Origin: a virus | Taxonomy: Duplodnaviria; Caudoviricetes | Virus record (IMG/VR): IMGVR_UViG_3300037424_000434 | Span: 64,001-128,000 of that record | DNA: 64,000 bases | Reading direction: 5' to 3' (one strand) | Part shown: positions 10,561 to 60,984 of the stretch, piece after piece | Layout: each line of letters starts with the position of its first letter | How positions within the stretch are numbered: the first letter of the stretch is position 1 | The notes under the pieces: model-generated | Seen by the model: only the letters and a program-made list of their open reading frames with translations | The model's database searches: none | What the model was told of the DNA's origin: nothing | Made by a program: the position numbers and the translations under genes

Positions 10561-10648
10561 ATTTGTACCTCCTTTGTTATTTTCTTTGTCATTAAAGCAA
10601 TCCTTTTGATAACAACATTAACCAAGACACATGTTTTATTGCTATGGT

Positions 10649-10948
10649 TTATTCAGAATCGTCTTCATGTACATATAATGTTTGTTCTAGATACGATCCA
10701 ACACGGTGCTTTAGACCACATGTACAAGTTTTGTCATAATACCCAAAATCACACGAAGATGGATGTTCAAACTCAAAATGGTTAGGCATGTCCAGTATGG
10801 CTTTTTGTAGTTTTTCGTTTTGTTTTTGAAGAACGTCCAGCTCATCCAAGGCCATAGCAATAGCTTCACTTGAAGTTGCCGAATGACCTTCACCGCAGCA
10901 CACCATGGAACTTAGCATACCTATAGCCGTGCGTATTTTGTCTCTCAC
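10649..10948 (-). CDS. Hypothetical protein
   Basis: GGAG RBS; 99 aa. Confidence 0.55.
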   Translation of the reverse strand: MRDKIRTAIGMLSSMVCCGEGHSATSSEAIAMALDELDVLQKQNEKLQKAILDMPNHFEFEHPSSCDFGYYDKTCTCGLKHRVGSYLEQTLYVHEDDSE

Positions 10949-43231: not shown

Positions 43232-44545
43232 ATGAGTAAATACGTTGATCAACTCGTCAAAAAGTGGGACGGAATTCTCGCAGAAGGCGAAAGTATTGGT
43301 AATAAAAAGGTAAAAAAAGCTACTGCTATTATGCTTGAAAATCAGATGAACTATCTGACCGGTAATGCTGGTGGTAGAGACTCCATGAACGAGACTACCG
43401 CTTCCGGTGGTATTATGGGTGGTGGAGATGCATACAGTTCTGATGTGTTTGGCGCTGGTAATGCAGGAGATTATAAATCTAATGGTGAATTCCACAAGAT
43501 CGCTATCCCTATGGTTCGTCGTACTTTCCCCGAGCTTATTGCTCACGACATCGTAGGTGTTCAGCCATTGACTGGGCCTGTTGGTTTGGCGTTCGCGTTG
43601 CGTTTCCGTGCTGATCAATCTTATGCTGGTGTGGCTGGACAAGAAGTAGGGTACAACACTGTTGATCCTTACTACACAGGCGACGGTACAAAACAGTCAG
43701 CCATGGACATGACTCAAGGCGAAGCCCTTGGTTCCCGTGCATCTGACACCACTACTAATGGGTATCTAACTCAAGGTGGATCAGTGCAAACTGCTGGTGA
43801 CCGTGGTATTGGTATCGGGACCGGTAAACAAATCAAAGAATTGAGCATGACCGTTGAAAAAGCCCAAGTAGAAGCGGGAACACGTAAGTTGCGTTCACGT
43901 TGGAGCATTGAGGTAGCACAAGACCTTAAAGCTATGCATGGTCTTGACCTCGAAGAGGAAATGATGGACGTTCTTGCATACGAGATTACGGCAGAAATTG
44001 ACCGTGAACTTATCAACGTTATTCGTAGCGTTGCATCTACAAACGCATCGTCTGCTGTGTGGGATTATGCTGTTGCTGATGGCCGTTGGGAAGCTGAGAA
44101 GTACCGCAACTTCTACAACTTGATTATCCGTAAGGCTAATCGTATCGCAGTTGACACTCGCCGTGGCGCTGGCAACTTTGTTGTTGCTGCTCCTTCCTTG
44201 TGTGCTGCATTGGAAACCACTTCTTCTTTCACTATTCAGCCTGTGAATGCTGACGTGAACACAGCAGTAACCGGTGTTTCCAAAATTGGTTCACTTGATG
44301 GTCGCATGGCTATCTATCGTGATACTTTTGCTACCCTTGATGATATCGTCATCGGCTACAAAGGCCCCAGTGAATATGACACTGGTATCATCTACCTACC
44401 ATACATTCAGTTGTTGGTATCCAAAGCTGTATTTGAAGATTCTTTTAATCCTACTGTTGGTTTGATGAGCCGCTATGCAATCCATCAACACATCTTCGGA
44501 GCCGAGAATTATTACATTCAAGTGGCAGCTCAGAACCTACCTTAA
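43232..44545 (+). CDS. gp23: Major capsid protein (gp23-like)
   Basis: IPMVRRTFPELIAHDIVGVQPLTGPVGLAFALR, KAQVEAGTRKLRSRWSIEVAQDLKAMHGLD, EITAEIDRE, YLPYI. Confidence 0.98.
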   Translation: MSKYVDQLVKKWDGILAEGESIGNKKVKKATAIMLENQMNYLTGNAGGRDSMNETTASGGIMGGGDAYSSDVFGAGNAGDYKSNGEFHKIAIPMVRRTFPELIAHDIVGVQPLTGPVGLAFALRFRADQSYAGVAGQEVGYNTVDPYYTGDGTKQSAMDMTQGEALGSRASDTTTNGYLTQGGSVQTAGDRGIGIGTGKQIKELSMTVEKAQVEAGTRKLRSRWSIEVAQDLKAMHGLDLEEEMMDVLAYEITAEIDRELINVIRSVASTNASSAVWDYAVADGRWEAEKYRNFYNLIIRKANRIAVDTRRGAGNFVVAAPSLCAALETTSSFTIQPVNADVNTAVTGVSKIGSLDGRMAIYRDTFATLDDIVIGYKGPSEYDTGIIYLPYIQLLVSKAVFEDSFNPTVGLMSRYAIHQHIFGAENYYIQVAAQNLP

Positions 44546-44608: not shown

Positions 44609-44677
44609 TTAAGTCATTAGACCAATACATTTACATTTTATATAAATATCTATATAATAAAAGTATAGGGGATTATA

Positions 44678-45526
44678 GTGTCTAATATCACATCAAAACA
44701 AGAAGCATCTAATAAGTTCAACGAGACTCTATTATTTAAAAAATGTAAACTTCTATCTACATATAAAAATAATAGAACACCTGTTGATTTGGAATGTATA
44801 AACGGTCACATATTCAAGAAAACCCCTTCTGATTTTAGACGAGGGAGTGGGTGTCCTAAATGTTCCGGTAAATGTCCCGAACAGGCTAAAATCAATTTCG
44901 TTGAATTATTAAACAAAGAAGGTTATGATTTGATCTCTCCTTATGTAAAAGCATTATCATGTGTCAGTGTTAGATGTTCAGTTGGTCATATTTTTGATAT
45001 GAGGCCTAATAACTTTAAAATGGGTCATAGATGTCCTAAGTGTGCGGGACTGTGTTCAGAACAATCAAAAGAACATTTTATCATAAATTTAAAAGATAAT
45101 GGATATGAATTACTATCAAAATATATAAACATTTCAACTAAAGTGAACCTGAAATGTCCAGAGGGTCATATATGGAAGGTTACACCTAATGATTTCAAAA
45201 ATGGTAACAGGTGTCCTCATTGTTCTGGTTCTACCGGACAAAGAATGTTACAAGAAATGTTATTAGGTCACATCAAAAGTCCAGTAATCTACAATGACCG
45301 TAAGACATTAAATGGTTTGGAATTGGATATCTATTATCCAGAATTAAATATAGCTATAGAATACCAAGGTAATTACTGGCACAACTTACCAGAAAAAAGA
45401 GAAACAGACAGAAGAAAGAAAAGTATATGCAAAGAAAAGGGTATAAAATTATTGGAAGTATGGGATAGTGATTTTTTAAAAAACAAGGATGTTGTTGTTG
45501 ATAATATAATTAAGGAGATATTATGA
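44678..45526 (+). CDS. Free-standing endonuclease: tandem Zn-ribbon repeats plus a Vsr/DUF559-like domain
   Basis: Three CxxGH...RCPxC repeats; LELDIYYPELNIAIEYQGNYWH; own late promoter at 44641. Confidence 0.8.
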   Translation: MSNITSKQEASNKFNETLLFKKCKLLSTYKNNRTPVDLECINGHIFKKTPSDFRRGSGCPKCSGKCPEQAKINFVELLNKEGYDLISPYVKALSCVSVRCSVGHIFDMRPNNFKMGHRCPKCAGLCSEQSKEHFIINLKDNGYELLSKYINISTKVNLKCPEGHIWKVTPNDFKNGNRCPHCSGSTGQRMLQEMLLGHIKSPVIYNDRKTLNGLELDIYYPELNIAIEYQGNYWHNLPEKRETDRRKKSICKEKGIKLLEVWDSDFLKNKDVVVDNIIKEIL

Positions 45527-46926
45527 TATTAGGAGTTGTTGATGGTACCTCCATAGAGAAACTTACAAATGGTAGCCAGAAAAAAATTATATTTGAGTGT
45601 GATGTTTGTCATGATAAAGTAGAACAATCATACCGTAATTATTTAAAACAAAATAACGGAAAATTTTGTAGAACCTGTAGAAATACACATACATCCAATA
45701 GACCAGATGTGAAGAAGAAGATATCTGATAATAGTACAAAAATGTGGTTAAATCCCTCTCATAGGAAAAAAATGGTTGAAGATGGTCTTATATCAAGGGC
45801 CGTTAAAAAATCTTGGAATAATGGCAGGAAACCAATAAATAATATTTTTGTAGAGAACACCACAAAAAAACGGGAATTGATTGAATTGGTTAATGGACTT
45901 GGATATGAATATATTAATTCATATATTAGAAAAAATAATGGAACGTGTATTAAAGTAAAATGCAAAGAAGGTCATATAACAATAAAAAGATTGTGTTCCA
46001 TTAGATCAGGCAAAATATTATGTGTTGAATGTTGTAAACATTTTTCTCAAGCAGAACGAGATTTATCTAATTATATAAAATCTCTTGGTTTTGTTGTAGT
46101 GGAAAACGATAGGACAATCATCAAACCATTAGAGTTGGATATTGTTATTCCTGAAAAGAAAATAGCGATTGAATATTGTGGTTTGTTTTGGCATGGAGAA
46201 ACCAAAGGCAAACACAATAAATATCATCTTAACAAATTGGGGAAATGTGAGTCGGAAGGATATCGACTAATAACCATATTTGAAGATGAATGGGCTAATA
46301 AACAAGATATTGTTAAGTCTAGATTGAAGTATATATTAGGTCAAGGTGGGAGAACGGTATATGCTAGACAATGTGTTGTCAAGGAGATATCACCAAAGAT
46401 AGCCAATACATTTATCAACAAATACCATTTACAAGGTTCAACGGGTAGTTCTATTAAATTAGGTCTTCATCACAACGGTGAACTGATTGCTGTTATGACA
46501 TTTGCAAAACCATCAATATCAAAAGGCAAAAAGTCATTTAATGATATATATGAATTATCAAGGTTTTGTTCTTCCTGTCAGGTTGTTGGTGGGGCGTCAA
46601 AATTATTATCCCATTTCAAGAAAAATTATGAATGGAATGAAATATTTACTTTTGCTGATTTAAGATGGTCGGAAGGTAATCTATATAAGCAGATAGGGTT
46701 CAATCACACAGGGGAGACAAAACCTAATTATTGGTATTTCAACACACAAAAACTAGGTGTGAGTAGGAAGCACAGATTTAATTACAGAAAAGACAGATTA
46801 CCATCTCTGTTTGGTAATGTTGATATGTCTATGACCGAATGGCAAATCATGCAGTCTCAGGGATTTGATAGAATATGGGATTGTGGAAACTTACGATATA
46901 AAATAACCAATAATGTGATTGGATGA
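45523..46926 (+). CDS. Putative homing endonuclease: Zn ribbon, Vsr-like domain and C-terminal conserved phage domain
   Basis: CDVC...CRTC; LELDIVIPEKKIAIEYCGLFWH; YARQC...ELSRFCS...GGASKL...FADLRWS...RIWDCG. Confidence 0.75.
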   Translation: MILGVVDGTSIEKLTNGSQKKIIFECDVCHDKVEQSYRNYLKQNNGKFCRTCRNTHTSNRPDVKKKISDNSTKMWLNPSHRKKMVEDGLISRAVKKSWNNGRKPINNIFVENTTKKRELIELVNGLGYEYINSYIRKNNGTCIKVKCKEGHITIKRLCSIRSGKILCVECCKHFSQAERDLSNYIKSLGFVVVENDRTIIKPLELDIVIPEKKIAIEYCGLFWHGETKGKHNKYHLNKLGKCESEGYRLITIFEDEWANKQDIVKSRLKYILGQGGRTVYARQCVVKEISPKIANTFINKYHLQGSTGSSIKLGLHHNGELIAVMTFAKPSISKGKKSFNDIYELSRFCSSCQVVGGASKLLSHFKKNYEWNEIFTFADLRWSEGNLYKQIGFNHTGETKPNYWYFNTQKLGVSRKHRFNYRKDRLPSLFGNVDMSMTEWQIMQSQGFDRIWDCGNLRYKITNNVIG

Positions 46927-51424: not shown

Positions 51425-52609
51425 ATGAAGAAAAATTATGTTCTGGATACAAATGTACTATTAGAAAATGAGAATTGTATTAAGATTTTAAGGAATGGAG
51501 AAGAGAATGGTATATACATTCCTGCCACAGTTATTGAGGAACTGGACACCCTAAAGAGAGACAAAAGAAAGAGACATCAGGTCATGAGAGCTATACACGC
51601 TCTCAGTGAATACAAAGACTATATCACCATTATACATAATGGCACTAAACATGAATCCCCTGATAACTTTATCCTAAAAGAAATTCAAGCCAATATCGAT
51701 AAGATAGAGAATCCCATATTCGTGACAAATGATAATCTTCTACGGTTTAAAGCAGAAAAAATGAACATACCCTCCGAAGATTTTAAAGATAGCAACCCAT
51801 TCCAATCAGAATCCCAGAGATATACAGGGTTTGTTAATGTAGATGACGGTGAAATCTTGGAAAAGAACTGTTACTATTGGAAAGAAGGAAAACTGCATTT
51901 CAACAATCATTACGGTGAAGAGAGTTTGGTTGTTGACAGAGAAGTATGGAAGGTCGCTCCTCGCAGCCAATACCAAAAAGCAGCAATGGATCTGATCATG
52001 AATGATGATATTGATCTAGTAACAATCCAATCTGAGGCAGGCTTTGGGAAAACATATTTGACCCTTGCTGCAATGTTTGATCAGGTGTTTGAAAAGAAAA
52101 AATTTAAAAAGATTTTTGTATTCAAAGCAAACATCGAAATTGGAAATGAGCTTGGATTTTTGCCGGGAGATGTGGGGGCAAAAATGTATCCATATTTTCG
52201 ACCTATCCAAGATTTAATGGAAAAGCTCCATGATCTTCGACCAGCCAATAGAGCATGGGAAGACCCAACAGAAAACACTCCATTACTTAATCGCAAATGT
52301 GTTGAGATGTTGCCGATCAATTTCTTGAGGGGCATGAATATCGATAACGCTATTGTTCTTATAGACGAAGTTCAAAATCTAAGCAGAGACGAATTGAGAA
52401 CAGTTCTTTCTCGTATGGGGGAGAATGTTAAGGTCATTTGTACAGGTGACGTTAGACAAATAGATAATATCCATTTAAATCAAGAGAATAATGGATTGAA
52501 TTGGATGGTGAGACTGTTTAAAGGGCAAGATAATTATGGTCATATAGTGCTTGGAGGCAGTAAATCAAGGGGTCCAATAGCAGATTTAGTGCGCGAAACA
52601 AAATTATAA
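51425..52609 (+). CDS. phoH: PIN-PhoH protein
   Basis: PIN YVLDTNVL; AGFGKT, GFLPGD, INFLRG, LIDEVQNL, VICTGDVRQID. Confidence 0.93.
   Translation: MKKNYVLDTNVLLENENCIKILRNGEENGIYIPATVIEELDTLKRDKRKRHQVMRAIHALSEYKDYITIIHNGTKHESPDNFILKEIQANIDKIENPIFVTNDNLLRFKAEKMNIPSEDFKDSNPFQSESQRYTGFVNVDDGEILEKNCYYWKEGKLHFNNHYGEESLVVDREVWKVAPRSQYQKAAMDLIMNDDIDLVTIQSEAGFGKTYLTLAAMFDQVFEKKKFKKIFVFKANIEIGNELGFLPGDVGAKMYPYFRPIQDLMEKLHDLRPANRAWEDPTENTPLLNRKCVEMLPINFLRGMNIDNAIVLIDEVQNLSRDELRTVLSRMGENVKVICTGDVRQIDNIHLNQENNGLNWMVRLFKGQDNYGHIVLGGSKSRGPIADLVRETKL
52515..52573 (+). repeat. phoH 3' segment, duplicated at 53656..53714
   Basis: 53/59 nt identical by manual alignment. Confidence 0.9.
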
Positions 52610-52619
52610 TATCACACGA

Positions 52620-53708
52620 TTGGATCAATGTCTAGATATGAAAATAGATTATTCGCATAGATTCAGGGATAACGTTGAACTTGTTGGATACGAAATGATA
52701 GGAGAATATGTTAATAGTAGTGTTCTTGTGAAATTAATATGTGATAGTGGTCATATATTTTCAATTAGACCAAATAACTTTAATAATGGACAACGTTGTT
52801 CTGTGTGCTCAGGGAAGAACAGAGAATATGCAAAATCCTCTATGGTCGAGTTGTTATATAAAGAGGGATATATGCACAAATCTGAGTATATAAACTCCAA
52901 TACAAAAATGAAATTACTTTGTCCAGAAAATCATGAATGGAACGTAACCCCGAACGATTTCAAAAAAGGAATTAGATGTCCTAAGTGTGGGAACAAGTGC
53001 AAAGAACAATCTAAACAAGATTTTATTAATTTGGTGGAGGAGTGTAGTTATACATTGCACGAAGAATATACTGGAGTGATGAATCGAGTGCTATTAGAAT
53101 GTGATAGAGGCCATAAATATAGAACAAGACCAAACGATTTTAAAAAAGGTTATAGGTGTAAAAAATGTTATACCGAAAACGTTATACAAAAATCCTTTGA
53201 AGGTTTTAAATTTATATTAAATGAGAATGGATATAAATTGAAAGATGATTATATAAATTCGACGACAAAAATATACATCATATGCCCCGAAGGTCATGAT
53301 TGGTATGTAGCTCCAAATGATTTTATTAACCACAATACACGTTGTCCCCATTGCCAAGGAAGTTCTGGTCAGAGAAGATTACAAGAATTTCTGACAAAAC
53401 ATATAGACAGAGATGTAGTATACAATGACCGCAAGACACTAGATGGATTGGAATTAGATATATACTATCCTGATCTAAAAATAGCAGTGGAATATCAAGG
53501 TGATTATTGGCACACACTACCAATGGCCCTAATAAGAGATAAAAGAAAAAGAATGTTATGCGAGAAAAAGAACATAAAACTAATAGAAGTATGGGAAAAA
53601 TATTATGTTACAGATGAAGATAATATAAACAATGAAGTGTTGGAGAATATAAAATTGTTTAAAGGTCAAGATACTTATGGTCATATAGTGCTTAGAGGCG
53701 GTAAATAG
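52620..53708 (+). CDS. Free-standing Zn-ribbon-repeat/Vsr-like endonuclease ending in a PhoH-derived tail
   Basis: Four CxxGH/NH...RCxxC repeats; LELDIYYPDLKIAVEYQGDYWH; ends LFKGQDTYGHIVLRGGK. Confidence 0.8.
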   Translation: MDQCLDMKIDYSHRFRDNVELVGYEMIGEYVNSSVLVKLICDSGHIFSIRPNNFNNGQRCSVCSGKNREYAKSSMVELLYKEGYMHKSEYINSNTKMKLLCPENHEWNVTPNDFKKGIRCPKCGNKCKEQSKQDFINLVEECSYTLHEEYTGVMNRVLLECDRGHKYRTRPNDFKKGYRCKKCYTENVIQKSFEGFKFILNENGYKLKDDYINSTTKIYIICPEGHDWYVAPNDFINHNTRCPHCQGSSGQRRLQEFLTKHIDRDVVYNDRKTLDGLELDIYYPDLKIAVEYQGDYWHTLPMALIRDKRKRMLCEKKNIKLIEVWEKYYVTDEDNINNEVLENIKLFKGQDTYGHIVLRGGK

Positions 53709-53805
53709 AGGGGTAGACGGTAGACGGTTTTTAATAGAGAACATACAAAATAAAATAAAATAAAATAAAATAAAGTATTAGGGAAGGTGTGTTATTGCAG
53801 GTAAT

Positions 53806-54138
53806 GTGAGATATGACGAATATGTTAAACGACCAAACGAAGAACATGAATACACAGAAGAACAGATTCGAGAGGTTGTTAAATGTAAAACCGATTTGAT
53901 GTATTTTATACGCAACTATATATATATTGTACATCAGGATTCGGGCGTACAGTTGTTTGATCCATATGACTATCAGATAGATTTGTTAGAAAAATTTCAA
54001 AATCATAGATTTAACGTATGTCTATTATCTCGACAATCGGGTAAATGTTTAGAGGGTGATACTGTCATAAAACTTCGTAATAAGACCACGGGCGAAATCA
54101 AAGAAATAACAATGGAAAATTTTTTTAACCAAACATAA
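53806..54138 (+). CDS. terL: Terminase large subunit fragment 1: extein 1 (80 aa) plus IntN-1 (30 aa)
   Basis: YFIRNYIYI...YDYQ..LL...RFNVCLLSRQSGK then CLEGDTVIKLR...; IntN at 54046..54135. Confidence 0.93.
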   Translation: MRYDEYVKRPNEEHEYTEEQIREVVKCKTDLMYFIRNYIYIVHQDSGVQLFDPYDYQIDLLEKFQNHRFNVCLLSRQSGKCLEGDTVIKLRNKTTGEIKEITMENFFNQT

Positions 54139-54239
54139 ACCCGATTACTAGGCTAATAAAAATACAGTAAATTTTGGTATTATTGGTTATTGAGAGATAG
54201 ACAAAGAAAGTGTGATTAAAGAATGTTTGGAGTATTTGA

Positions 54240-54947
54240 ATGGCAGAATTTGTTGAAGAAAAATATAGTGATGAATGGGAAGTAGAAACACCCGATGGAT
54301 GGAAAGATTTTGGGGGTATAGGGAAAACAATAGAATATCAAGTATATGAGGTTTGTTTTACTGACAACACTTCTATTAAATGCGCCGATACTCATATTTT
54401 TATATTAAATGGAGTCGAAGTTTTCTGCAAAGATTTGGTATCAGGTAATGTAATAGATTCCATTGAAGGAACCTGTAAAGAAATATCACATATTATCAAA
54501 ACAAAAGATTGTGATAATATGTATGACTTGTTGGGTGTTGATGGTTCAATATATTATACTGACAATGTTGCTTCTCACAACTCAACTATTGTTGCCGCTT
54601 TTGCTTTATGGTATGCATGTTTTCACGGACACAAAAATATCGGTATAGTCTCGAACAAAGAAGAATCAGCAAAAAACTTTCTACATCGATTAAAGTATAT
54701 GTATGAACTAATGCCGGGTTGGTTGAAGCCCGGTGTACCCGGTTGGGCGCAAAAGACTGTTGAATTCGACAATCATACGAAAATTTATACTGCTGCAACA
54801 TCCAAAGATTCATTCCGTGGTGAGCCGATGGGGATGTTGATTTGTGTGACTGGAGATAACACCGTGAAATTACGGGATAAAATCACTGGTGAAGAGGTGA
54901 CAATGACAATGGAAGAACTGGCCAATGACCTGAGAATGGATTCATGA
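54240..54947 (+). CDS. terL: Terminase large subunit fragment 2: IntC-1 (114 aa), extein 2 (87 aa), IntN-2 (34 aa)
   Basis: ...YYTDNVASHN|STIVAA (junction 54581/54582); ...FRGEPMGMLI|CVTGDNT (54843). Confidence 0.93.
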   Translation: MAEFVEEKYSDEWEVETPDGWKDFGGIGKTIEYQVYEVCFTDNTSIKCADTHIFILNGVEVFCKDLVSGNVIDSIEGTCKEISHIIKTKDCDNMYDLLGVDGSIYYTDNVASHNSTIVAAFALWYACFHGHKNIGIVSNKEESAKNFLHRLKYMYELMPGWLKPGVPGWAQKTVEFDNHTKIYTAATSKDSFRGEPMGMLICVTGDNTVKLRDKITGEEVTMTMEELANDLRMDS

Positions 54948-55807
54948 CTACATACAAAAGAGACTACAAAGAAGAGTTCAACGATTTGGTTGAAAGTGAA
55001 GGTTATGTCCTTTTATCTGAGTACAAAAAAGACAAAGAACGTGTTGGTATAAAGTGTCCGAATGGTCATATCTATAAAATAAAACCAAATACTTTCAAAA
55101 ATGGTTGTAGGTGTTCATCTTGTCCTACAAAAAGACAAGTAAAATCAAAACAAGAATTTTTTGATATGTTATATGTTGATGGTTATGTTATCACAACAGA
55201 ATACGTTGATGTAAGAACAAGGGTGGGTCTGATGTGTCCAAAAGGTCACGAATGGACCACTACCCCTCATGGATATAAAAAGGGGTATAGGTGTTCGATA
55301 TGTGCAGGAAATAATCATAGTTACGCTAAAGACGAATTTTTAGGGATGATAGAGGAAGAGGGTTATAGTTTAATATCAGATTATATCAACTCAACAACAA
55401 GAATAAAAATTAAATGTCCAAATGGACATGAATGGGATGCAATACCATCCGAATTCAAACATCAATATTTTAGATGTCCTATATGCGCGGGTAGTTCTGG
55501 CCAAAGATTATTACAGGAAATGTTATCAGAACATATTGATGATGAAGTGGTTTATAATGACCGCAAAATTCTTGGTGGACTTGAGTTGGATATATACTAT
55601 CCAAAATTGAATATTGCAATAGAATATCAGGGTAATTATTGGCATTCATTGCCAGAAGTTGTTAAACGAGACGAAAGAAAACGACAATTATGTGGTAATC
55701 TTGGTATCAAGTTAATAGAGGTATGGGATACTGATTTTTTAAACGACAAACAAACTGTTATTAAATATGTTAACGAGGAAAGGTGTTTATGGAACAGGAA
55801 TTCATAA
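54944..55807 (+). CDS. Free-standing Zn-ribbon-repeat/Vsr-like endonuclease between IntN-2 and IntC-2
   Basis: CPNGH/CPKGH...RCxxC repeats; LELDIYYPKLNIAIEYQGNYWH; overlaps both flanking terL ORFs. Confidence 0.85.
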   Translation: MTTYKRDYKEEFNDLVESEGYVLLSEYKKDKERVGIKCPNGHIYKIKPNTFKNGCRCSSCPTKRQVKSKQEFFDMLYVDGYVITTEYVDVRTRVGLMCPKGHEWTTTPHGYKKGYRCSICAGNNHSYAKDEFLGMIEEEGYSLISDYINSTTRIKIKCPNGHEWDAIPSEFKHQYFRCPICAGSSGQRLLQEMLSEHIDDEVVYNDRKILGGLELDIYYPKLNIAIEYQGNYWHSLPEVVKRDERKRQLCGNLGIKLIEVWDTDFLNDKQTVIKYVNEERCLWNRNS

Positions 55808-57813
55808 AGAATAGTAGGTATGAGATATATGGGGAGTCTGGTTGGGAGAATTTTGATGGTGTTGTTGTTAATACAGGAGACTTTGATATTTATGAAATAA
55901 AAACCGATAACCATTCAATAAAATGTACAGATAAGCACAAAATATATACCAGCGAGGGCGTGAGTACAGCCGATGAGGTGGAAAGGGGTGACATTTTATT
56001 TATACAGGGTGGCATTACCGAAGAGGTTATATCAACACAATATACAGGCAAACAAAACACTACATACGATATATTCAACAGTGATTCACATAAAGTCCAT
56101 ATAAATCAAATACTTACGTCTAATTGTGACGAATTTGCGTTTGTTGAGCCGAGCTGGAAAGCAGAAGAATTTTGGGCATCAAACTACCCAACCATTTCAG
56201 CCGCAGAGACTTCTAAAATTATTATCATCTCATGTGTTGCGGGGGATACCTATGTTTACACAGATAATGGCGTAAAACAAATATCCAATATTATCGGTGA
56301 TAGATGTGTTGGTGGCCATGAAATAGAATCCTATGGGGTATTGGGTAAAGATAAGATAAGAGGTGGCCGTTTAATCGTCAATAGCGGTATTACAAAAACC
56401 AGAAAAATCATCACAACAAATTCGGAATTGGAGGGCAGTTTAGACCATAAACTATGGTCATCAAAAGACGGTGTTATTGGTTGGCATAAAATATCTGAAC
56501 TAAATGAAGGAGATTATGTTTCACTGCAATATGGAATGAATGTATGGGGTAATAATGATCATATTGGATATGTATCACAGAAGAGAAGAAATAAACAAGG
56601 GAAAAGTTTAAATGTCGAAAATATAACAGAGGATTGGGCATATTTATTTGGATTATATATATCAGAGGGGTGTGCTGATAAGTACAGACTCAATATTTCA
56701 TGTGGCGATGATATATCGGATATTTTTGATAGACTGGGGCTTTCATATTCATGCAGTGATGGTATGCATTATGTTACAAGCAATCTATCATTAATAGAAT
56801 TATTAGAGCACGTTGGGTTCGATATAGCTAAAAACGCACCAGATAAAATAATACCAGACAGATTGATGTGTATGTCAAAAGAAAATATAGCGGCAATGTT
56901 GAGTGGGATTTTTGATGGTGATGGCTTTTCTCGAAAGGACAAAGGAACCATAGGAATAGGATTGTCTTCAAAAAAACTCGTTCAACAGATACGAGTGTTG
57001 TTAATGAACATGGGTATGTTGGGTGAGTGGTATGAGGTGGAATCAAAACCAACAGATAAGGTCAAAGTCCATTCAATACAACACAGATATCATTTGGATA
57101 AATCTTCATCTAAGAAGTTTTATGAAGAAATTGGTTTTAGACTAAAAAGAAAACAATTAAATGAGAACATTTTAGGTAAGGTCAATGAACCAAAAAATGA
57201 CATTATACCATATTCAAAAACTTTTATTGACGGTAAAGGTATAGTCAAGGATGTCGAACAAGTTTTGGGTTCATATGTATATAATAGAGGATTGTCTGAT
57301 AACATTTCAAGAGGATTGATGATTAGGATAAAGGAATCCCTTGGTGATACATTCAGCGAAGAGATTCATGAATATTTTAACAGGAATGTATCAGAAAACA
57401 TCAAGTGGTGTAAAATAAAAAGCATAGAAGAATCAAAAAATACGGTTTATGATTTCTCATTACCCGATAATATCGATGATGAGTGGTGCCATTCAGTTAT
57501 ATATAATGGATTTATAGGTCATCAGACACCTAACGGTCTGTATAATAAATTTCATGAAATATACAAAAACGCAGACGAAAAAACCAACTCATTCATAGCA
57601 ACTCGATATGATTATTCAGCCGTTCCGGGCAGGGATGCTGAGTGGGCTAAAGTTCAGAGAATGAACCTAGGGCCAATCAAGTTCCAACAGGAATTTGGAT
57701 GTTTTTTTCAAGATACTGTAATCACTATACAAAATGAAGAAACAGGTTTAATCGAAAATATTACCATAGGGGAACTAAATAAACGAATGGGGCAAGAGAT
57801 TGGTCATGAATAG
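55783..57813 (+). CDS. terL: Terminase large subunit fragment 3: IntC-2, extein 3, contiguous intein 3, extein 4, IntN-4
   Basis: ...ILTSN|CDEFAFV (56124/56125); KIIIIS|CVAGDT (56233); FIGHQ|TPNG (57525/57526); FQQEFG|CFFQDT (57700). Confidence 0.93.
   Translation: MFMEQEFIKNSRYEIYGESGWENFDGVVVNTGDFDIYEIKTDNHSIKCTDKHKIYTSEGVSTADEVERGDILFIQGGITEEVISTQYTGKQNTTYDIFNSDSHKVHINQILTSNCDEFAFVEPSWKAEEFWASNYPTISAAETSKIIIISCVAGDTYVYTDNGVKQISNIIGDRCVGGHEIESYGVLGKDKIRGGRLIVNSGITKTRKIITTNSELEGSLDHKLWSSKDGVIGWHKISELNEGDYVSLQYGMNVWGNNDHIGYVSQKRRNKQGKSLNVENITEDWAYLFGLYISEGCADKYRLNISCGDDISDIFDRLGLSYSCSDGMHYVTSNLSLIELLEHVGFDIAKNAPDKIIPDRLMCMSKENIAAMLSGIFDGDGFSRKDKGTIGIGLSSKKLVQQIRVLLMNMGMLGEWYEVESKPTDKVKVHSIQHRYHLDKSSSKKFYEEIGFRLKRKQLNENILGKVNEPKNDIIPYSKTFIDGKGIVKDVEQVLGSYVYNRGLSDNISRGLMIRIKESLGDTFSEEIHEYFNRNVSENIKWCKIKSIEESKNTVYDFSLPDNIDDEWCHSVIYNGFIGHQTPNGLYNKFHEIYKNADEKTNSFIATRYDYSAVPGRDAEWAKVQRMNLGPIKFQQEFGCFFQDTVITIQNEETGLIENITIGELNKRMGQEIGHE
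56233..57525 (+). mobile_element. 431-aa LAGLIDADG intein with C-terminal Gln
   Basis: CVAGDTYV start, LFGLYISEG and LSGIFDGDG motifs, VYDFSL...NGFIGHQ end, +1 Thr. Confidence 0.92.
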
Positions 57814-58906
57814 CATGACAGAAGTAATTAGCAACACAAAATATAAAATTCTAACCCCCACAGGATTTCAATATTTTTCTGCAATACAAAAACTAAAGAA
57901 ACCAACCATTAGGTTTATATTTGAAGATGATTCTGATTGTACCGTGTCCACAGGCCATAAATTCTATATTGATGGTAAAATATTATTGTCTGATGACGTG
58001 GTGATTGGTGATAGTCTCTACCACCAAGATAAATGGTATACCAAAGTTGTTGGTATAGAGTATTTAGGGGAATCAGATGTATATGATTTAATGGACGTAT
58101 CCAATGGTAACTTGTATTACGGAAATGGTATTTTGTCTCATAATTGTGAGTTTATAGGATCAAGTAACACTGTCATTGATGGAAAAACTCTTGAGAGGCT
58201 TATGAAGCACCGTAAAGAGCCCGAGTCGTTGGATATGGGGGGTAAGCTGCGTATATGGGAGAAACCCAAGCAGGGGGCAACCTACGTCCTTGGAGTGGAT
58301 ACATCCAAGGGTATTGGTGGTGATTCGAGTGTAATTCAGGTAATAAAGATATTAGGTGTCAATCCAATCCAAATGCGACAGGTGGCGGTGTGGGAAGATA
58401 AATTTACAGATGTTTACAAATTTGCCGAAGTTGTCAATAAAATGTCGTATTATTATAATGATGGATATTTGATGGTTGAGAATAACGCCGAGGGGTCAGT
58501 AGTTGTTCAGAGACTGTGGTGGGAATACGAGAACCAAAATTTGATAAATACAGGTGGTAAAGTCAAAGACCTTGGTATTCGCGCTACAGGTAGCACCAAA
58601 CCTCGGGCCGTTCTTCTCATGAAGAAAGTTCTTGAAGACAGAATGATCGAAATATATGACGAAAGAACTGTTGCCCAGATATCAGACTTTCAAGACTTGG
58701 GTGGCAATAAGTTTGGTGGCGTTAATATAAACGACGATTTGGTTACCTCTTTGTATTGGGCTATATATGTCATTGAGATGCAAGTATTCGACGAGTCATT
58801 TACTTTTTCGGAAGAACAGGACGAGGAAGATGATTTCTGGGGGGATTTTTTGAGCGACTGGGAAGACGAGGCCCGCGAGGTTGATTGGTCATGGCTTCAT
58901 GATTAA
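57806..58906 (+). CDS. terL: Terminase large subunit fragment 4: IntC-4 plus extein 5 (nuclease domain, 253 aa)
   Basis: KILTPTGF...YYGNGILSHN|CEFIGSS (58144/58145); YVLGVDTSKGIGGDSS, MVENN, NDDLVTSL. Start may be 57806 or 57815. Confidence 0.93.
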   Translation: MNSMTEVISNTKYKILTPTGFQYFSAIQKLKKPTIRFIFEDDSDCTVSTGHKFYIDGKILLSDDVVIGDSLYHQDKWYTKVVGIEYLGESDVYDLMDVSNGNLYYGNGILSHNCEFIGSSNTVIDGKTLERLMKHRKEPESLDMGGKLRIWEKPKQGATYVLGVDTSKGIGGDSSVIQVIKILGVNPIQMRQVAVWEDKFTDVYKFAEVVNKMSYYYNDGYLMVENNAEGSVVVQRLWWEYENQNLINTGGKVKDLGIRATGSTKPRAVLLMKKVLEDRMIEIYDERTVAQISDFQDLGGNKFGGVNINDDLVTSLYWAIYVIEMQVFDESFTFSEEQDEEDDFWGDFLSDWEDEAREVDWSWLHD

Positions 58907-58933
58907 TGATAAATAATAACAGAGGAATTGGAA

Positions 58934-59239
58934 ATGAAATTTAAGGATTTTTTGAAAGAAGGCGTCTATAAAACAGATAACTGGAATCTCGAAGACATTA
59001 CTTTCCGGTTGGAACAGGCCCGCGCTCAGCTCAAATTCATTGAAGCCGAAATGAAGGTTCTTTCAAAAAAACCTATACCTCCCGGTGACATGAACAAGAA
59101 ATTGGCGTGGGATAATAAAACAGAGGCACTTGAGGCCAGATATGAAGCAACAAGAACAAAAATCAAAAACTTCTCAGAAAAGTTGGCTAGACACCAAGAG
59201 AAAATGAGGGGTGGTTCTGACCGGAGGGCGAGTCACTAA
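58934..59239 (+). CDS. Putative capsid-internal protein
   Basis: MKFKDFLKEG; GATAAATA at 58908. Confidence 0.65.
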   Translation: MKFKDFLKEGVYKTDNWNLEDITFRLEQARAQLKFIEAEMKVLSKKPIPPGDMNKKLAWDNKTEALEARYEATRTKIKNFSEKLARHQEKMRGGSDRRASH

Positions 59240-60984
59240 TGGGAATTTCACGTAGTCAACTTATAGGCAAAGTTCGCAGACGTTTAGGTGAGCCTATGGT
59301 GAAGGTCGAGCTTTGTGATGTGCAAATTATCGATCATATTAATTATGCCCGCCAGAAGTGGCTGAAATGGGCGACCAGTAATGCCACACAGGACGTATAT
59401 TTTACTGTTCTGCTTCAGGCAGGGAAAAAGTTTTATGATCTTCCTGCGGGTATTCTTGATGTTATTGCTTATGATGATGAACCTATACAGTCAGGTGGAA
59501 TCAATACTCTATTCACAATAGACAATATGATGTTCTCAAGTGGGTTTTATGGGAACATGTTTTGGGGTGGATATGATTTAGTGAGTTATCATTTGGTTCA
59601 GGATTTCATGAAGACCATGAGAAAATACCGTGCAACCCCATATAATTGGAGATACCATAAATCAACAAATCAATTGGAGATCAATCCGACTCCCGGCACA
59701 AGCAATGGATTATTGGATGTGCAGTGGACAAATCCCAGCACAGGTATAGTTGATACAGTGGCTGTTGATTCTCCGGGATGGATTATGCTCCGTTGTTTTA
59801 CTGCATCAGGGGCTACTCTCCCTAATTATTCTCCCGCATGGAGTGATGTGCTTAAGGAAAAAAAGGTTATAGTCGAATCCATCACAGTATCAGCACAAGA
59901 CGTGGTTAACAAATATGTTACATTAAAACATACTCCAGCACCATGCCCAAGTGATACCACTGATTATAATATAATAGAAGATACGAGTGTTTCTGTTGGT
60001 GGTCTCACTAGAACAAAAACCATAGAATGGGATTTTTATACAAAAAATCTTCGGGTTATCACATGGGATGGGTTTACTCTTGATGGTGAAATTTCTGCGG
60101 GTGATATAATCAATGTCAAATATCCCGTAATATTTCAATCACAACTATACCAAGACGAGGATTGGACGAGTGTTTCTGAAACGTGTGTTGAAACAGAACA
60201 CTATCAATTATATCCAAATGATATTGTCGCAAAGGAAATCACCTTGCAGCGTACTGTTTGGGAAGATAATATAAGAGTCTCTGTCGGAAAAGTTGATCAT
60301 GTATATTCTGTTGATTATATAGTAAACCCTTATGACAAAAAAACTATATCATGGGCAGATCTTGGACTAGAAAATATTGTTGTCGAGGGTGATATTATAG
60401 AGATAACATATGTTCATGCTACAGGAACGGTCATAACAGATCCGTCATATACTGGCGGGCAGTCAATGATAAAACAATATGTCACAAAAATAGAAAATCT
60501 CACAGTATCCGCTCAGAATGTTATTGATGGGTATTTGACCGTTCTTGATGATACTGTTGCGGTGGGAGATGGGGTTAAACTTTCTATCGGCGGGATGAGC
60601 AAAGTCTACAACAAAGACTACACAATAGTTAACGATGAAATAAACAACAAGTTCACTGTTAGGTGGGTTGGATATGCCATGGCACCCCTTGTCGCAGAAA
60701 ATGATTCTATAATCATGACATACACTTCATCTGTTCCCATTATGTCAGAGCTTGATGAGTCACTGTACGACGAAGATTGGATTTTTGATTATGTAACAGC
60801 GATGTCTAAGATATCTCTAGGGTTGATTAGACGTAAATTTTCTAATTTTAGTTCTTTGGGAAATCAAGGAATTACAATGGATGGTGATTCACTGGTGAGC
60901 GAGGGAAACACAGAAAAAGAGTATCTGGAACAGACCCTTAGAGACGAAGAACCTTTCGAGGGGTATGGGATTGAACTTGCTTGA
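59239..60984 (+). CDS. gp13: Neck protein (gp13-like) with three inserted repeat domains
   Basis: RRLGEPMVKVEL...I..A; DEDWIFDYVTAMSK..LG..RRKF...G.GITMDGD.L..EG..E...L. Confidence 0.85.
   Translation: MGISRSQLIGKVRRRLGEPMVKVELCDVQIIDHINYARQKWLKWATSNATQDVYFTVLLQAGKKFYDLPAGILDVIAYDDEPIQSGGINTLFTIDNMMFSSGFYGNMFWGGYDLVSYHLVQDFMKTMRKYRATPYNWRYHKSTNQLEINPTPGTSNGLLDVQWTNPSTGIVDTVAVDSPGWIMLRCFTASGATLPNYSPAWSDVLKEKKVIVESITVSAQDVVNKYVTLKHTPAPCPSDTTDYNIIEDTSVSVGGLTRTKTIEWDFYTKNLRVITWDGFTLDGEISAGDIINVKYPVIFQSQLYQDEDWTSVSETCVETEHYQLYPNDIVAKEITLQRTVWEDNIRVSVGKVDHVYSVDYIVNPYDKKTISWADLGLENIVVEGDIIEITYVHATGTVITDPSYTGGQSMIKQYVTKIENLTVSAQNVIDGYLTVLDDTVAVGDGVKLSIGGMSKVYNKDYTIVNDEINNKFTVRWVGYAMAPLVAENDSIIMTYTSSVPIMSELDESLYDEDWIFDYVTAMSKISLGLIRRKFSNFSSLGNQGITMDGDSLVSEGNTEKEYLEQTLRDEEPFEGYGIELA

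Follow-up and report, generated by a model that had tools for sequence, protein, structure and literature searches.

The stretch analysed here (hereafter the window, 64,000 nucleotides in full) comprises bases 64001-128000 of the 235,765-bp IMG/VR virus record IMGVR_UViG_3300037424_000434, which is estimated to be 98% complete and derives from an uncultured phage. It encodes the large terminase (TerL), the gene for which (terL) is spread over four co-oriented open reading frames (ORFs). Both the ORF listing and our own parsing of the translations give the order E1-IntN1, IntC1-E2-IntN2, IntC2-E3-(LAGLIDADG intein)-E4-IntN4 and IntC4-E5, wherein E denotes an extein segment and IntN and IntC denote the N-terminal and C-terminal fragments of an intein (Table 1). 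This layout agrees exactly with that given in a preliminary description of the locus, and the sum of extein lengths stated there (80 + 87 + 36 + 58 + 253 = 514 amino acids, aa) is reproduced as well.

Table 1. Features of the terL locus, in window coordinates. L008 is a related phage contig with an uninterrupted terL; X2 denotes contigs of a second sample and study (sediment).
Feature	Position	Strand	Content or basis
ORF1	53806-54138	+	E1 80 aa, IntN1 30 aa
ORF2	54240-54947	+	IntC1 114 aa, E2 87 aa, IntN2 34 aa
ORF3	55783-57813	+	IntC2, E3 36 aa, cis intein 431 aa, E4 58 aa, IntN4 37 aa
ORF4	57800-58906	+	IntC4, E5 253 aa
Extein E1, 80 aa, TerL N-terminus ending SRQSGK (Walker A)	53806..54045	+	aligns with L008 TerL residues 1-81
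IntN1, 30 aa, Cys-initiated (CLEGDT...), block A only, then TAA	54046..54138	+	parsing; stop reproduced in X2
Gap 1, 101 nt non-coding, GGAG before ORF2 ATG	54139..54239	+	without endonuclease gene
IntC1, 114 aa: block B CADTH, block F YDL, block G SHN, +1 Ser	54240..54581	+	CatC match
Extein E2, 87 aa, Walker A Ser-Thr to Walker B strand GMLI	54582..54842	+	Pfam Terminase_6N
IntN2, 34 aa (CVTGDN...), then TGA	54843..54947	+	parsing; junction reproduced in X2
Free-standing homing-endonuclease-like gene, 287 aa, gap 2	54944..55807	+	Pfam, phrog, PDB matches
IntC2, 112 aa from ATG 55789: block B CTDKH, block F YDI, TSN end, +1 Cys	55789..56124	+	family profile
Extein E3, 36 aa, CDEFAF (Walker B CDE) to KIIIIS	56125..56232	+	parsing
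Cis intein 3, 431 aa, CVAGDT...GHQ before Thr, LAGLIDADG domain	56233..57525	+	Pfam, TIGR01445
Extein E4, 58 aa, TPNG to QQEFG	57526..57699	+	parsing
IntN4, 37 aa (CFFQDT...), then TAG; overlaps ORF4 start by 8 nt	57700..57813	+	parsing
IntC4, 113 aa from ATG 57806, SHN end before Cys of CEFIG	57806..58144	+	CatC match, tree
Extein E5, 253 aa, TerL nuclease domain, starts CEFIG	58145..58906	+	Pfam Terminase_6C

Each IntC-bearing ORF has its own ATG and ribosome-binding site (RBS). The true start of ORF3 is most likely the ATG at 55789, located behind the RBS GAGGAAAGG, and that of ORF4 is most likely the ATG at 57806. The layout of the preliminary description stands, and with these starts IntC2 has 112 aa and IntC4 113 aa. 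For E1, initiation is possible at the GTG at 53806 or at an in-frame ATT at 53794. The ORF2 stop codon and the ATG of the endonuclease-like gene in gap 2 overlap as ATGA; this gene had been overlooked in the preliminary description, whose arrangement of the flanking pieces is otherwise correct. At gap 3, ORF3 and ORF4 overlap by 8 nt and are read in different frames.

When spliced in silico, the 514-aa product is colinear with the uninterrupted terL of related phages, with 70.7% identity over 512 residues. The intein-free contigs used for comparison (L002-L006, L008 and L009) all carry terL without interruption, and the terL of L008 reads through all junctions (SRQSGKST, GMLICDEFAF, IIIISTPNG and QEFGCEFIG). 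The inserts are in-frame insertions that are precisely absent from this intein-free allele. The motifs that had been proposed to be rebuilt by ligation (SRQSGK/ST, LI/CDEFAF, IIIS/TPNG and QEFG/CEFIG, with a slash marking the junction here and below) are fixed exactly by these homologues. E2 aligns with residues 78-168 of L008 TerL, and E5 is 65% identical to L002-L008 and 30-33% identical to annotated T4-like terminases.

The intein-free homologue matches the gp17 structures 3EZK and 3CPE (E-value 5.5e-59). On the gp17 alignment the cuts fall at GK/T, MIY/IDE, ITT/TPNG and QEHT/AAF, positions that we take to be Walker A, Walker B, the TTT or coupling motif, and the hinge or segment before the nuclease domain, respectively. 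Both parts of a T4-type large terminase are present, with the ATPase recognised by Terminase_6N on E2 and the RNaseH-like nuclease by Terminase_6C on E5.

All four inserted elements start with Cys, and they end in SHN/S, TSN/C, GHQ/T and SHN/C, wherein the terminal residue of intein 3 is Gln, not Asn. The IntN fragments are 30, 34 and 37 aa long and the IntC fragments 114, 112 and 113 aa, and block B (xxH) is located inside each IntC; each split thus falls between blocks A and B. These are the dimensions of atypically split inteins; the AceL/GOS type has IntN fragments of 25-37 aa and IntC fragments of 104-115 aa (table in PMC11766414). Cys1, the block B His, the block F Asp, the terminal Asn or Gln, and the +1 Ser, Thr or Cys are conserved across 13-16 diverged homologues. 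More specifically, H52, D96, H113 and N114 of IntC1 are invariant in its alignment (A1), as are H50 and D94 of IntC2 in the alignment of its family.

Searches for the Hint fold were made with the IntC fragments and with a natural contiguous version of intein 1 (P0015). IntC4 matches PDB chain 6DSL_B, the 'consensus engineered intein CatC' (E-value 1.4e-16), which represents the consensus of the AceL/GOS TerL inteins, and the profile TIGR01443 intein_Cterm (E-value 5.6e-4), and IntC1 matches the same CatC chain (E-value 2.4e-8). A profile of the IntC2 family (A4, built from 13 metagenome proteins that begin with IntC2) matches CatC with an E-value of 8.7e-14, in addition to some 30 other intein chains. 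Other inteins, such as gp41-1, DnaE, NrdJ-1, DnaX and VidaL, are likewise matched by IntC4 and by the IntC2 profile. Among PDB entries, the sole match of IntN1 is the CatN chain 6DSL_A, with a weak E-value of 1.4, and IntN4 alone has no match; both fragments are too short for statistics. Two assignments made in the preliminary description are borne out by these results. Pair 4, placed there in the AceL/GOS-TerL lineage, has the IntC with the strongest resemblance to CatC, and the Walker A and Walker B pairs, proposed there as additional atypical splits, also have CatC as the closest relative of their IntC fragments.

The element within ORF3 is of a different kind. Its N-terminal part matches TIGR01445 intein_Nterm (E-value 4e-8, ORF3 residues 151-224) and its endonuclease domain matches Pfam LAGLIDADG_3 (E-value 1.5e-11), and by these features it is predicted to be a standard bifunctional cis intein.

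Complex modelling was applied to pair 2 only. The IntN2 + IntC2 model has an ipSAE of 0.67, compared to 0.00 for the best control, and places both splice junctions in the interface, where IntC2 residues 112/115 are also located. Of 78 solved complexes, 51 score at or above this mark, as do two of 108 mismatched pairs, and specificity among family members lies beyond the reach of this test.

The C-termini of the IntC family at the Walker B site (A3, P0189-P0216) are variable and include SN, HQ, CQ, KN and HN; the +1 Cys of CDEF, by comparison, hardly changes. Such a spread in block G is unusual within one intein allele.

The interpretation that we consider highly probable is that a single terL gene has been invaded by four inteins, three of them atypically split, and that its four polypeptides are spliced into one TerL protein. 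The four tightly packed ORFs would probably be co-transcribed and translated as four separate polypeptides. Each short IntN would dock into its cognate IntC and thereby complete a Hint fold. The thioester formed at Cys1 would then be attacked by the +1 Ser (pair 1) or Cys (pairs 2 and 4), the terminal Asn would cyclise, and the exteins would become joined by a peptide bond. Within piece 3, the LAGLIDADG intein would splice in cis, using Cys1, its terminal Gln and the +1 Thr. Three trans-splicing reactions and one cis-splicing reaction would yield a scarless TerL of 514 aa (about 59 kDa) in which the motifs and the hinge between ATPase and nuclease are restored, and about 63% of the translated residues would be discarded.

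There is one terL in this genome, given that the five extein blocks tile the reference and that no second terL is found in the record (estimated completeness as above). Thus, no way of making a terminase is evident other than protein splicing. We infer the occurrence of all four reactions, their order, and the absence of cross-reaction between the three pairs. Atypical inteins are reported to need threading of the N-extein through IntC (PMC11766414), and therefore the order of the three trans reactions is a real question.

Several observations weigh against this splicing model. IntC2 as a single sequence reaches CatC only with an E-value of 0.15, even if all four of its matches are inteins, and it lacks the penultimate His; it ends in SN here, and its relatives end in HQ, CQ or KN. 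A good score in the complex test may stem from likeness among family members and not from binding of this copy in particular. Only the source sample supports the ORF3/ORF4 overlap, and the terL locus is present in none of the RNA runs. IntN1 and IntN2 are 47% identical, and GOS-TerL and AceL-TerL can reportedly exchange their IntN fragments (PMC11766414). For these two reasons cross-reaction between the pairs is possible, with E2 becoming cyclised or being skipped. Perhaps limited cross-pairing even yields functional side products, such as cyclised E2 or a TerL without E2, or, conversely, the three inteins are a co-evolved, mutually orthogonal set whose splicing is not just a tolerated burden and serves as an ordered or conditional maturation step (responsive to temperature, redox state or assembly) that times the active motor. 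We consider this pair of elaborations unlikely.

Another possibility is that the pieces of TerL assemble non-covalently, such that the intein halves act as affinity domains only and no peptide bonds form, at least at site 2. There is a precedent in Aeh1 NrdA, a phage gene split by an endonuclease whose product is reassembled through interaction domains (PMC3045599), and the absent penultimate His and variable terminal residues of IntC2 would be in keeping with this possibility. However, the cuts are located inside the P-loop, the Walker B strand and the coupling motif, where a free end and about 145 extra residues should block catalysis. Moreover, Cys1, the block B His, the block F Asp, the terminal residue and the +1 nucleophile are retained across the same 13-16 diverged homologues, and since these residues are needed for the chemistry and not for binding, their conservation argues against purely non-covalent assembly. 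We therefore regard this alternative as very unlikely.

Comparison with L035, an unrelated 217-kb contig from another project, allows selection to be assessed. The proportions of nonsynonymous (pN) and synonymous (pS) differences are 0.23 and 0.72 for IntC1, 0.37 and 0.65 for IntC2, and 0.22 and 0.64 for intein 3; for the gap-2 endonuclease they are 0.35 and 0.67. E2 and E3 are 86% and 89% identical to their L035 counterparts, with pN of 0.06-0.09 (0.06 for E3). We report pN versus pS because synonymous divergence (dS) is saturated, such that there is no dN/dS ratio for several exteins. In all intein parts pN is much lower than pS, and judged from these differences both the intein parts and the exteins are under purifying selection, strongly so in the exteins.

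Identity among the three IntCs is 27-32%, compared to 43-67% with inteins at the corresponding sites in other phages. Tree analysis recovers the site-4 IntCs as a clade with 100/99 support and groups the site-2 IntCs at 86/93, and the site-1 IntCs are found in a poorly resolved group together with inteins from the P-loops of the helicase and Rad50-like genes of the same genome. Because same-site IntCs group together and the three show little identity to each other, they represent three old, site-specific lineages and not recent duplicates. The elements would be selfish DNA that is spread by homing endonucleases. A Vsr-like endonuclease gene remains between IntN2 and IntC2, and gaps 1 and 3 are without such genes here and with them in relatives.

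The preliminary description had named related terL loci as the place to look for the same split points, and these are found in L035, L038, L007 and the cultured Salicola phage SCTP-2. In L035, the four-piece order is present, including the cis intein with its HQ/T junction, and an endonuclease gene is located in each of the three gaps (the one in gap 1 encodes 342 aa); IntC4-E5 is beyond the stretch examined. In L038, terL is in three pieces, with splits at sites 1 and 2 and an endonuclease gene in each of the two gaps, and in L007 the IntC4-E5 piece is located behind a Vsr-like endonuclease gene. There is an additional feature in L035 at 10628-10750, where a 40-aa ORF that follows the gap-3 endonuclease gene repeats the tail of IntN4 (ITIGELYERMEQEI compared to ITIGDLYERLDREN). 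It is followed by an unrelated gene of 423 aa and then by a NUMOD3 endonuclease gene, and therefore the distance to IntC4-E5 exceeds 2 kb.

When ORF2 was searched exhaustively among protein clusters formed at 50% identity, 2524 representatives were obtained, the best 150 of which were used for counting. Among these 150, an xN/S or xN/T junction at Walker A is present in 146, and the residues are HN in all but two. In the same set, 98 begin with IntC1, 17 are middle pieces of the IntC-E2-IntN type and 30 contain the intein internally. The arrangement is not confined to this phage and is widespread in metagenomes.

SCTP-2 has a genome of 440 kb (GenBank MF360958.1), and its terL consists of genes 534, 267 and 224 (L050, L046 and L048). 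They map to approximately 429, 256 and 216 kb, use both strands and are separated by 40 to 213 kb, and the record labels them simply as 'terminase large subunit'. The splits are atypical and occur at Walker A (GK/C...SHN/T) and Walker B (LLY/C...SQ/CDEFAF), and there is also one cis intein. No other terL was found in the SCTP-2 genome, and no paper on its terL pieces was found in the literature. Because SCTP-2 is cultured and its terL is in three pieces, a viable phage does live with a multi-split terminase.

This precedent bears on a further alternative, namely that terL is undergoing decay and that the phage genome, overrun by selfish elements, is defective or non-viable. The element load is indeed extreme, with at least seven paralogous endonuclease genes and with the helicase and Rad50-like genes also split, and the viability of a genome that comes from a metagenome is unproven. 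Nevertheless, all frames are open, the exteins and inteins are constrained relative to L035, the layout is present in several independent metagenomes as well as in a cultured phage, and the phage itself is seen in at least two samples. Thus, decay is a highly improbable explanation.

The reality of the stops and gaps, which the preliminary description had proposed to confirm in raw reads, is supported by two sources. When the source sample was re-assembled independently (X1), positions 53783-59000 showed 0 differences. The second-sample contigs (X2) are identical over 54104-54278, from the ORF1 stop through gap 1 to the ORF2 start, and over 54848-55031, a stretch with the ORF2 stop and the start of the endonuclease-like gene. 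An Rfam scan of positions 52500-59300 reveals no group I or group II intron and only two chance-level matches. That errors of sequencing or assembly produced the stops and frame changes, or that these are bridged by RNA-level joining or ribosomal frameshifting, could at most draw on the short, single-sample overlap at gap 3, and is hardly credible given this agreement at junctions 1 and 2, the absence of a recognisable intron, the complete 287-aa gene inside gap 2, and the homologous splits at all three sites elsewhere, whose halves are often separated by an endonuclease gene.

The gene in gap 2 encodes repeated zinc ribbons (Pfam DUF4379 and CapR) and a C-terminal Vsr-like/MTES_1575 nuclease domain. 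It matches the phage endonuclease families phrog_559 (E-value 5.7e-62) and phrog_3339 'homing endonuclease', and also PDB entry 3R3P 'mobile intron protein' (E-value 1.8e-4). We take 3R3P to be I-Bth0305I, of the Vsr-like family defined by Dassa and colleagues in 2009. Paralogues of the gap-2 gene are found at no fewer than seven genomic sites. With this free-standing Vsr-like homing endonuclease gene in place, the terL locus is a textbook 'fractured gene' in the sense of the 2009 study; an endonuclease gene between IntN and IntC is found at gap 2 only. In gap 1 there is no trace of an endonuclease gene like that of L035 at this site, and only the RBS region is alike. Such a gene may have been lost here or may never have been present.

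The locus is an extreme, multi-fractured form of a known intein type. The AceL-TerL, GOS-TerL and Cat (6DSL) inteins share the short Cys-initiated IntN, the long IntC with blocks B, F and G, and the terL host gene, and pair 4 further resembles Cat in having the +1 Cys-Glu of the crystal construct 6DSL. The described AceL and GOS cases have a single split and two pieces, whereas here there are three splits plus a cis intein, and three trans reactions would be needed. The study that defined fractured genes (Dassa, London, Stoddard, Schueler-Furman and Pietrokovski 2009; PMC2677866) reported split inteins with free-standing endonuclease genes in DNA-metabolism genes of phages, including a 'Terminase' locus with an unusually long C-part of 122 residues, and described the Vsr-like endonuclease family. 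Its only multi-intein case is DnaE-1, which has part of an additional in-frame intein (PMC2677866). Gap 2 here and all three gaps of L035 match this layout. In contrast to the one fracture per locus of that study, there are three in a single gene here, and two of the three gaps are without an endonuclease gene.

The Walker A site is also occupied in a cultured Kuttervirus, Salmonella phage Maynard, whose terL has an annotated cis mini-intein in the P-loop (Cys110-Asn268) that is 36% identical to IntC1 over 112 aa. The Maynard intein is contiguous and splices in cis, whereas IntC1 is part of a split intein. SCTP-2 shares with our locus the atypical splits at the Walker A and Walker B sites and one cis intein, but its terL is in three scattered pieces and has no split at the CEF site, compared to four pieces here. 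Engineered systems for tandem trans-splicing (PMC12707363, PMC7090010) likewise join at least three segments and use middle pieces of the IntC-segment-IntN type. These are laboratory constructs built with unrelated inteins that were tested to be orthogonal, whereas the pieces here are natural and carry three paralogous atypical inteins. A natural protein with two or more trans-splicing junctions or split inteins was not found described, in a literature whose subscription papers were thinly covered, so that absence is unproven.

If the splicing model is correct, an essential single-copy motor would depend on four consecutive self-catalysed splicing reactions, of which three join separate polypeptides, and this would set a new upper mark for the fragmentation by selfish elements of a gene that must still work. 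Close relatives have zero to four inteins and gaps with or without endonuclease genes. They therefore offer a natural series for the model wherein a mini-intein is fractured by an endonuclease that is later lost. Atypical split inteins are also valued because their short IntN is synthetically accessible. Here, natural IntC-extein-IntN middle pieces come with three candidate pairs that are presumably kept by selection from cross-reacting. Tandem ligation of multiple segments needs such non-cross-reacting pairs, and the many diverged homologues widen the pool. For the study of multi-split terminases, SCTP-2 provides a cultured system.

The genome that carries this locus is that of a roughly 236-kb T4-like phage. 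T4-like structural genes are encoded in the window, including a gp23-like capsid gene at 43232-44545 that matches the 434-aa capsid ORF of L008, and a PhoH-like gene is located upstream of terL. DNA of the phage occurs in sediment metagenomes, and a nucleotide search of GenBank phages with the terL locus gave no match. ARAGORN predicts no tRNA in the window. A scan for sigma-70 promoters and terminators performed no better than on shuffled sequences, and the T4-type late promoter TATAAATA is absent from the + strand near the terL pieces, and therefore we make no promoter claim for terL. The same late-promoter core is present 17 times in the whole window, where 7.4 occurrences are expected and none of 100 shuffles reached 17. 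This excess is consistent with a T4-like late transcription system.

Free-standing endonuclease-like genes are also found elsewhere in the window. Two are located directly downstream of the gp23-like capsid gene, at 44678-45526 and 45523-46926, and the sole nearby + strand copy of TATAAATA is at 44641, just upstream of the first of them. Between phoH and terL, at 52620-53708, there is a gene for a zinc-ribbon/Vsr-like endonuclease of 362 aa that shares approximately 48% identity with the gap-2 gene. The endonuclease ends in about 20 residues (LFKGQDTYGHIVL) that are a duplicate of the C-terminal region of PhoH (LFKGQDNYGHIVL), and there is no gene between phoH and terL in L008. On account of both observations, this gene looks like the footprint of an endonuclease-mediated insertion with a co-converted flank.

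Two further genes outside the window are interrupted. A gp41/DnaB-like helicase is encoded in three pieces (G000:C1:19047-23300). One of its splits is atypical and is located in the P-loop (GFK/C...SHN/S). The other is canonical and comprises a long IntN (IAE/CLHVDTD...), the gene for a Vsr-like endonuclease (21475-22587) and a short IntC at about 22593-22703. Similarly, a Rad50/gp46-like ATPase gene (G000:C1:180418-183798) has an atypical intein split at Walker A (NGAGK/C...SHN/SS), with an endonuclease-like ORF (180684-181790) located between its two halves.

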